A DNA stretch of 63,365 bases, counting the filler, from Globobulimina sp. (Eukaryota): NCBI GenBank assembly GCA_003354225.1. It is 54 parts of 54 records of this genome, joined end to end, with 100 filler letters (N's around TTAATTAATTAA, not from the genome) between each part and the next. Parts side by side here need not be neighbours in the genome. Positions count along the whole stretch, not along the records: positions 42,322 to 43,396 come from PIVH01024200.1; 53 more parts are not named here. One strand, given 5' to 3'. A program made the translations under genes and the position numbers. Position 1 is the stretch's first letter. Every line of letters begins with the position of its first letter. The notes beneath the pieces are model-generated. The model had not been told where the DNA came from, did no database searches, and saw nothing but the letters and a program-made list of their open reading frames with translations. This document shows, in pieces, positions 42,222-43,396 of the stretch.

Positions 42222-42454
42222 NNNNNNNNNNNNNNNNNNNNNNNNNNNNNNNNNNNNNNNNNNNNTTAATTAATTAANNNNNNNNNNNNNNNNNNNNNNN
42301 NNNNNNNNNNNNNNNNNNNNNTTTTGTGTTGTTGTGTTGTGCTTAATTCTATTTTTCGAATTGACAAAGTTAGCATTGATTTCTTAGTGTTTTGAAGAGT
42401 AAAATTAATTGTGTAGAGTCAGTGGAGTACCTTTTCTTATTTTTACCTCCATCG

Positions 42455-43396
42455 ATGGCGAGAACGAAAGAAACAGCAAGAAAATCAACAGGTGGGAGAG
42501 CACCAAGAATGCACTTTTCAACAAGATTTGCAAGAAGAGAAATGTCAAGAGCTGAGGCAGCTGCAGAAAAAGTAGAAAAAATGGCTAAAATACGTCTATC
42601 CAACAAACAAATGGCATCATGGTTAAGATTAAATCGATTAATATCGCAAAATCGTACAACAAATGAGATATTAAAAGATGCATTGCGTAATTTAATCGAA
42701 TCAAGGAGTATTGAAGAAATTTTTCTTTTTATAGCAAAGGGCGCAAAATATGAAAATGATAAAATGGAATTAATCCATGAATCTATTTCGAAACAAAAAA
42801 CAAAGCATGAAAATAAAAAAAAAGATAAAAAGAAAATTGAAGATAAAAAGAAAAAGAAAATTGAAGATAAAGATGAAAATAGAAAATTAAATGTATTTGA
42901 ATTAATACCAAATGAATGTATTTCCCATATTTGCGGTTATATAAATAAAAAAGATATAATAAAATCACTCAAACACACTTCGCGAAGACAGGCCATTGTT
43001 TGTTTCAATGAAATGAATAAATTTTAATGTAATGAGTAATTTATGTAATTTGCATGATTTTAACATAAAAAAATTAACAATAAATAACAGATATCCATCA
43101 TCAACCAAATATTATTCGTTATATGATGATTGGCACAGAAAATATAACATTCCGCCACAAAATCAATTATTATTTGATATTTCCTCAGAGAACGGTTTAA
43201 CATTCGATGCATTAAAAATGGAAACGTCACAGATTGGGATTGCACAAGAATTTTTAATATTGGATAATAGAAAAATAACTATTTTAAGCAAGGATAAACA
43301 AAGAAAATTCAATATCGAACAAGATAAATATGAAAATATTAAAAATTACGAATTAATGATTTTGGAATATTTTGATATCAAAAAGCAAACATTTAA
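42455..43396 (+). CDS. Histone-H3-tail-like N-terminus fused to coiled-coil and F-box-like region; single-base frameshift at about 43022-43025
   Basis: [18 protein letters not shown] matches H3 residues 1-17 at 15/17; no histone fold; LNVFELIPNECISHICGYI is F-box-like; removing one T joins ORF 43032-43396. Confidence 0.75.

Follow-up and report, generated by a model that had tools for sequence, protein, structure and literature searches.

Can a protein that begins like histone H3 and continues as something else be a genuine gene product, and, if so, what might a histone tail contribute to it? This question is raised by an open reading frame (ORF) in Globobulimina sp. (assembly GCA_003354225.1), which the original prediction described as an H3 tail mimic fused to an F-box-like protein. 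The ORF is located in the window, i.e., the whole stretch of 63,365 nucleotides analyzed here, which is a chain of unrelated contigs of 1,074-1,076 bases each, separated by N spacers and taken from a source assembly of 70 Mb in 48,370 contigs. As the segments adjoining the contig that carries the tail/F-box ORF are unrelated contigs joined by N spacers, there is no gene neighborhood to read, and a neighborhood of the ORF was dismissed.

Organization of the ORF

The ORF (42455-43027, + strand) encodes 190 amino acids (aa), and its ATG at 42455 is the first after an in-frame stop. Its features are given below in window coordinates; L002, L003 and L004 are paralogs, and X3 is one of the sequencing runs compared with the window.

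42322..43396, no strand: whole contig G000:C24200 (PIVH01024200.1), 1,075 bases, 27% GC
42420..42454, + strand: pyrimidine-rich upstream segment, closer to the upstream DNA of L002 and L004 than to H3 genes (a weak difference)
42455..42538, + strand: Met and copy of the H3 tail (H3 residues 1-27), predicted to be disordered up to residue 21
42539..42589, + strand: variable helical linker, which differs in length, in frame, between paralogs and in the X3 contig
42590..42784, + strand: family-specific helical domain (residues 46-110), without a clear fold match
42785..42886, + strand: Lys-rich low-complexity linker (17 K/R and 8 D/E in 34 residues)
42887..43024, + strand: F-box (residues 145-190), intact in the window copy; weak in Pfam, backed by fold and Skp1 model
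43016..43027, + strand: site of a 20-base deletion with one copy of a 7-base direct repeat left; frameshift, with the stop at 43025-43027
43017..43394, + strand: out-of-frame continuation into USP7-like UBL1 and the first part of UBL2 (84% identity to the intact paralog L003), running off the contig

An AlphaFold2 model of the 190-aa ORF had a mean pLDDT of 80, with low confidence for residues 1-21 and a helical remainder; searches with this whole model returned no clear fold match for the helical domain at residues 46-110.

Further upstream on the same contig, a 36-base segment (42375-42410) has a 94% identical copy on L069 (G000:C6805:2209-2244) and shows loose ends in runs X1 and X6; it is a small shared element. 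On an unrelated neighboring contig (window 43514-44571, + strand), two frames appear Tudor- or chromo-barrel-like by eye, and Pfam gave one weak, unrelated match only. Another contig (window 38797-39871, + strand) carries a repeat protein that begins with a signal peptide and, on inspection by eye, appears bacterial, which suggests some contamination in the assembly.

An H3 tail on a body that is not a histone

The N-terminal tail is identical to H3 of the same genome (L028) at 15 of 17 and at 18 of 27 positions, exactly as had been claimed, and it carries the K14R, K18M, K23R and K27R changes that were listed with that claim. Its local alignment score against H3 was 100, a value reached by none of 20,000 shuffles; across 151 family relatives, the N-terminal 45 residues had a median score of 14 and a maximum of 30. 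The H3 query aligned only to residues 1-42 of the ORF. No histone family was found among the five Pfam matches at E <= 1, in agreement with the proposed absence of a histone fold; specifically, PF00125 was absent from the window ORF in Pfam, whereas L052, an H3 in which a long insert separates the tail from the fold, matched it at 4e-24. The window protein is not a histone H3 or an H3 variant, as its body belongs to another family.

Two paralogs, L002 and L004, carry H3-like starts on the same body as the window ORF. L002 begins with ARTKQTTTKS and continues, after a gap of five residues, with H3 17-26 containing two changes (score 66), while L004 begins with GRQKRTARKS and is exact over H3 6-17 (score 80); each of these scores was reached in 0 of 20,000 shuffles. 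The ATGs of L002 and L004 are likewise the first after an in-frame stop, and all three starts conform to the iM-Z-R-X-K rule of H3 N-terminal mimicry proteins (H3TMs; PMC8166343). The window copy, L002, L004 and L003, a 450-codon open paralog that is 90% identical to the window copy over residues 93-189, form one clade (99 SH-aLRT). The end of L004 and the start of L003 share 49 identical bases, and, judged from sequence, these two loci may be one intact tailed gene of approx. 545 aa.

The fusion is real

The genome contains 66 matches to the H3 query (copies and fragments), and with dozens of these present, tail donors are plentiful. In an assembly as fragmented as this one, with many H3 copies, the ORF could also be an artefact of assembly or amplification that joined an H3 gene to an F-box gene, and contigs from genuine H3 genes do pile up over 42455-42509. 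Against a chimera, codons 2-18 of the window copy differ at 7 or more of 51 bases from every one of 14 other H3-like starts, and the junction is common to three diverged paralogs, as would be expected from the original view of a fusion with a divergent tail rather than a fresh chimera. The upstream DNA gave local scores of 29-30 among the window copy, L002 and L004 and no score above 22 against the DNA upstream of these 14 starts.

Mapping of reads across the junction had been proposed as a check, and at the level of contigs the junction is bridged. Four of nine sequencing runs, from three studies, were compared with the window as contigs (X1, which may be the source run, X3, X6 and X7; the last two may be RNA), and three of these four (X1, X3 and X6, one from each study) contained contigs bridging tail and body. 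The X1 contig bridges 42432-42577, the X3 contig links 47 bases of the tail with the body and has a net loss of 33 bases that preserves the frame, and X6 provides a single 569-base contig across 42480-43022 with a different linker; for X7, no bridging contig was found among the matches listed. A chimera is thus already largely refuted, and we consider it extremely unlikely; the junction between H3 tail and body is a real fusion.

An F-box predicted to bind Skp1

The F-box-like segment reported in the original prediction is real: weak in Pfam (E = 0.22; 11.8 bits against a curated cut-off of 24.3), it is backed by its fold and by a model of the complex with Skp1. In the family, 2 of 50 relatives passed the PF00646 cut-off (34.8 and 20.7, compared to 20.5), and 7 and 8 of 99 members matched PF00646 and PF12937, respectively, at E <= 0.01. 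When residues 143-190 were searched with Foldseek, the top rows were F-boxes (rmsd 1.5 over 42-45 columns), but with E values of 0.21-0.24 and no row at E <= 0.001. VIA gave Z 6.0 and rmsd 2.4 over 47 aligned residues, and F-boxes made up 8 of the 10 rows listed at Z >= 5.0; the Z is modest because the F-box domain is small.

The model of the F-box with Skp1 (the local paralog fragment L099) scored 0.61, as compared to 0.01 for the best control, with contact agreement of at least 90% between runs and partner pLDDT of at least 69. For microbial pairs, 51 of 78 solved complexes and 2 of 108 mismatches attained the mark applied to such models; for eukaryotic pairs, the corresponding figures were 39 of 65 and 2 of 126. 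As F-box and Skp1 are a textbook pair whose complexes are already solved, a passing model represents likeness to those complexes rather than binding; the F-box may bind Skp1, as modeled. Of the three outcomes that had been named as refuting the original prediction (a chimeric junction, homologs all without the tail, and no support for an F-box or Skp1 binding), none was observed. L099 (234-938, - strand; G000:C28028) is a Skp1 paralog whose N-terminus is extended by an acidic stretch and which has approx. 45 inserted residues, and a second, intron-containing Skp1 is located on C3320.

The carrier family ends in USP7-like UBL domains

The family to which the body belongs has a helical domain, an F-box and then at least three ubiquitin-like (UBL) domains. 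The region downstream of the window F-box had been described as split by one extra T; the split stands, the extra T does not (see below), and this region is where a USP7-like UBL array begins. The model of L003 (pLDDT 77.5) matched the C-terminal UBL1-3 of USP7 with a Foldseek E value of 7.6e-11, and in VIA five USP7 entries had Z 13.2-14.1 (rmsd 6-8 over 242-286 residues), with the next row at 9.2. PF12436 was matched by 2 of 99 members (best 1.6e-8), and one local member was above the cut-off. No USP or TRAF domain was found by Pfam in 11 local family frames containing UBL or F-box regions, 50 proteins and 99 members, and in the window ORF and L003 the sequence upstream of the UBLs is too short to hold such domains.

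Within the genome, the 190-aa query gave 49 matches (tail-only H3 matches included) and the L003 query gave 63. A profile of 22 local members found 360 clusters (50% identity) at E <= 0.001 among 1.84 billion proteins, and the best 150 of these clusters were examined; in the protein collection, six of nine relatives were from Bolivina argentea (EukProt). Word-based protein searches against longer proteins gave 0 of 1,712 candidates for residues 30-190 and 0 of 23 for residues 1-70, and the word-based family-profile search gave 1 of 8,000; these blanks are weak, as the full HMM search found the 360 clusters. A PDB sequence search returned one chance match only (E = 0.43), and 0 of 46 pattern matches in JGI metagenomes were confirmed.

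The ratio dN/dS was 0.16-0.28 for the body upstream of the break (five comparisons) and 0.47-0.63 for the UBL region (four comparisons), which shows that the body is under purifying selection. The N-termini are very variable across the family, and other members carry WW, chromo (E = 1.9e-5) and weak MBT-like or RanBP2-type modules. This is a large foraminiferal family in which an F-box is joined to USP7-type UBLs and which seems to be undescribed. One further locus, L104 (370-2034, + strand; G000:C6815), has a BTB-like frame (by eye) with USP7-like UBLs behind it in which the D764-equivalent motif is retained, and represents another reuse of USP7 UBLs, on a possible cullin adaptor.

Alternatively, the tail could be a regulatory switch instead of a bait, in which its modification by histone-modifying enzymes would control the stability or location of the adaptor or its closure on its own UBL2. 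UBL2 of USP7 binds KxxxK motifs in polybasic segments via D762 and D764 (PMC4457826); the family has the USP7 UBL fold, and the tail is basic (9 K/R). The acidic pocket is not kept, however; in an ungapped count that included L104, the D762 and D764 equivalents were Asp in 2 and 6 of 39 sequences, respectively, and L003 has Ser and Cys at these positions. Docking of the tail into its own UBL2 is weakened by this loss, and the window copy is also without K14, K18, K23 and K27. We consider such a switch quite improbable.

The window copy carries a 20-base deletion

The original prediction attributed the break in the downstream region to one extra T at about 43022-43025. Compared to L003, the window copy instead has a 20-base deletion, and the X3 and X7 contigs carry 20 additional bases behind 43015; an extra T was rejected on these grounds. 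These bases start with the same 7 bases that come after them, which indicates that direct repeats slipped and the segment between them was lost. This happened recently, as the X3 contig, apart from the 20 bases, shows one other difference from the window in 181 bases. The X1 contig matches the window exactly, and the lesion was seen in one study only, with near-identical contigs of two other studies being intact; it may be an amplification artefact.

Through the deletion, the window copy lost the USP7-like UBLs, which are the probable substrate-binding part of the family. The stop is placed directly behind a complete F-box and the window tail is the best kept of the three, as might be expected if the 190-aa product were functional, either with the tail as its sole substrate-binding element or as a dominant negative that sequesters Skp1. 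However, the second frame downstream of the break still runs for 126 codons without a stop, with 84% identity to L003, and a lesion this recent, seen in one study, speaks against an established truncation, which we consider very unlikely. The window copy is a truncated and most likely non-functional allele of a gene that other samples carry intact.

Histone tails elsewhere in the family and genome

An H3 tail was found in 3 of approx. 30 local family members (29 distinct helical-domain matches plus L004, which de-duplication had merged with the window copy); a start was visible for 22 of the 29. Among 151 relatives from other sources, no H3 tail was clear. In P0088, the nearest of the relatives without a tail, a faint H3 trace looks eroded (score 30; 58 of 20,000 shuffles).

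One of the 151 relatives, P0098 from Bolivina argentea, has an H4-like tail instead: it starts with GRGKGGRGLG, its residues 1-21 are H4-like, and 14 of 20 positions are identical to the H4 tail of the Globobulimina genome (L121; score 85, reached by 0 of 20,000 shuffles). Its local counterpart, L020 (664-1395, - strand), has at most an eroded H4 trace (256 of 20,000 shuffles), and no H2B-like tail was found among the 151 relatives (best score 31). In a tree based on the body only, the H3 clade and the P0098-L020 pair (99 for each) are placed in different starred groups, of 53 and 7 rows, respectively, which indicates that the H3 and H4 tails were gained independently, albeit from few columns; the tree is a quick version (140 columns, 99 rows) in which 47 of 96 inner branches are open.

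H3 tails also occur on other proteins of this genome. In L072 (721-2781, - strand; G000:C2746), an H3 1-47 tail (39 of 47 identical) is followed in one open frame by a vWA domain and a C-terminal U-box, and 28 of 38 synonymous sites in the tail are changed. In L073 (2272-4086, + strand; G000:C1633), H3 1-33 (32 of 33 identical; K23 replaced by Tyr) heads a 605-codon frame with no Pfam match, and 21 of 28 synonymous sites are changed. Synonymous sites are near saturation in both fusions, and both tails look conserved; this genome thus retains H3 tails on proteins other than histones, including one ligase.

A large protein encoded by L074 (3-1838, + strand; G000:C11369) contains an internal copy of H3 2-18 (15 of 17 identical) adjoining RS repeats and heptads resembling the RNA polymerase II CTD. 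Divergent H3 variants with replaced or extended tails were observed at L037, L040, L041, L044, L046, L049, L051, L052 (with its long insert), L053 and L054, and H3 and H4 copies with stops or frameshifts at L039, L056, L121 and L122.

Selection on the tail

Body dS between the paralogs was 0.19-0.42, and the neutral expectation for the tails assumes approx. 0.2 dS per lineage. Compared to H3, the three tails showed 20-21 non-synonymous changes, with 24-26 expected under neutrality (P = 0.13-0.33). Only residues 1-17 of the window tail look constrained, with 2 non-synonymous changes as compared to 6-7 expected (P = 0.04-0.06, for a boundary chosen afterwards), and residues 18-27 had approx. 9 changes; between the window and L004 tails, 6 non-synonymous and 2 synonymous changes were found. 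Overall, the tails of the three paralogs changed about as much as neutral drift predicts and are not clearly conserved. A K-to-M change in a histone can be inhibitory; K18M was rejected as such a change, as it is not shared (L002 has Lys and L004 has Asn).

These results bear on the alternative that a piece of an H3 gene gave an F-box gene a start codon and a basic leader that is now drifting. This leader would be at most a nuclear-localization or DNA-binding stretch, the adaptor would work via its UBLs, and the H3 likeness would be a fading trace. The near-neutral divergence fits this explanation, with each paralog retaining a different part of the tail, as do the apparently eroded tails of P0088 and L020, the variable N-termini of the family and the many H3 matches in the genome. 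Harder to reconcile with a drifting leader are R2, K4, T6, K9 and S10, which are kept in all three paralogs (approx. 0.08 by hand count, not significant), the second, independent histone tail (H4) in the same slot, the upstream DNA, which is not H3-like, and the other H3-tail fusions, which keep the protein sequence despite near-saturated synonymous sites. On balance, we consider passive capture somewhat unlikely.

A putative histone bait on a ubiquitin ligase adaptor

Our best explanation, to which we give an even chance, is that the protein is an SCF adaptor displaying a modifiable H3K4/K9 peptide. Foraminiferal SCF substrate adaptors with a helical domain, an F-box and USP7-derived UBLs would have a freely exchanged N-terminal slot, which in one recent subclade would have been filled, in frame, by the first approx. 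27 codons of H3, after which the tailed gene would have duplicated into at least three paralogs. Removal of Met would expose a free H3-like N-terminus with R2, K4, T6, K9 and S10 kept. Histone writers could modify this tail, readers of the PHD, chromo or Tudor type could attach to it, and SCF tethered to such chromatin factors could expose them, or partners bound to the UBLs, to ubiquitination. Every step of this mechanism beyond the likeness to Skp1 complexes is what we infer.

A more far-reaching hypothesis, which we regard as unlikely, is that Foraminifera have a modular ubiquitination system based on histone mimics, in which an expanded F-box family took up the partner-binding UBLs of USP7 for the ligase side and swaps N-terminal H3 and H4 tails and reader-like modules, with fast, paralog-specific changes of the tails tuning SCF adaptors to different chromatin writers or readers that would be degraded during nuclear remodeling in the life cycle. 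Foraminifera remodel their nuclei drastically, with stage-regulated histone paralogs and ubiquitination genes, according to bioRxiv 10.64898/2026.10.21.760831, in which the term F-box does not occur.

If the tail works as proposed, a copied histone tail would serve as bait on a ubiquitin ligase and link histone-code enzymes to protein degradation, a link for which we found nothing in print. The independent gains of H3 and H4 tails in one family would provide a natural setting in which to ask whether selection favors such captures or just tolerates them. No paper on an H3-tail/F-box fusion or on F-box/USP7-UBL proteins was found in a literature search judged by titles and starts of abstracts, mostly outside subscription journals. 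Overall, we interpret this locus as a genuine fusion of a histone tail to a member of an F-box/USP7-UBL family that is apparently undescribed; the allele in the window is broken, and the function of the tail is putative.

Comparison with known systems

Short histone mimics, in which a non-histone protein carries an H3K4- or H3K9-like motif, include influenza NS1 and the automethylation motifs of G9a and SETDB1. While these are short motifs, the window tail is a gene-derived copy at a true N-terminus. The H3TMs (e.g., VRK1, BCL11B and PCLAF/PAF15) are closer in that a non-histone protein starts with iM-Z-R-X-K and R2 and K4 are predicted to be exposed after removal of Met; they are defined by this 4-residue motif (PMC8166343), as compared to 17-27 residues from H3 here. 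The supplement of that paper lists 48 H3TMs, among which there may be ligases. The carrier here is an F-box adaptor.

With the F-box proteins of SCF ligases (PF00646, PF12937), the family shares a three-helix F-box fold modeled on Skp1 and a C-terminal interaction module behind the F-box. The usual C-terminal modules of F-box proteins are WD40 or LRR domains, whereas this family has a USP7-like UBL array; the window copy also differs in its degenerate F-box sequence, below the Pfam cut-off, and in the helical domain and histone tail added in front. With the C-terminal UBL1-3 of USP7/HAUSP (PF12436; PDB 4pyz, 4wph and 5j7t), the family shares the same tandem arrangement at 9-11% identity, and a few members retain a GDI-x-FQ remnant and weak to significant Pfam matches. 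Unlike in USP7, no protease or TRAF domain was found in the F-box family and the D762/D764 pocket is mostly lost, and the UBLs are joined to an F-box, on the ligase side.
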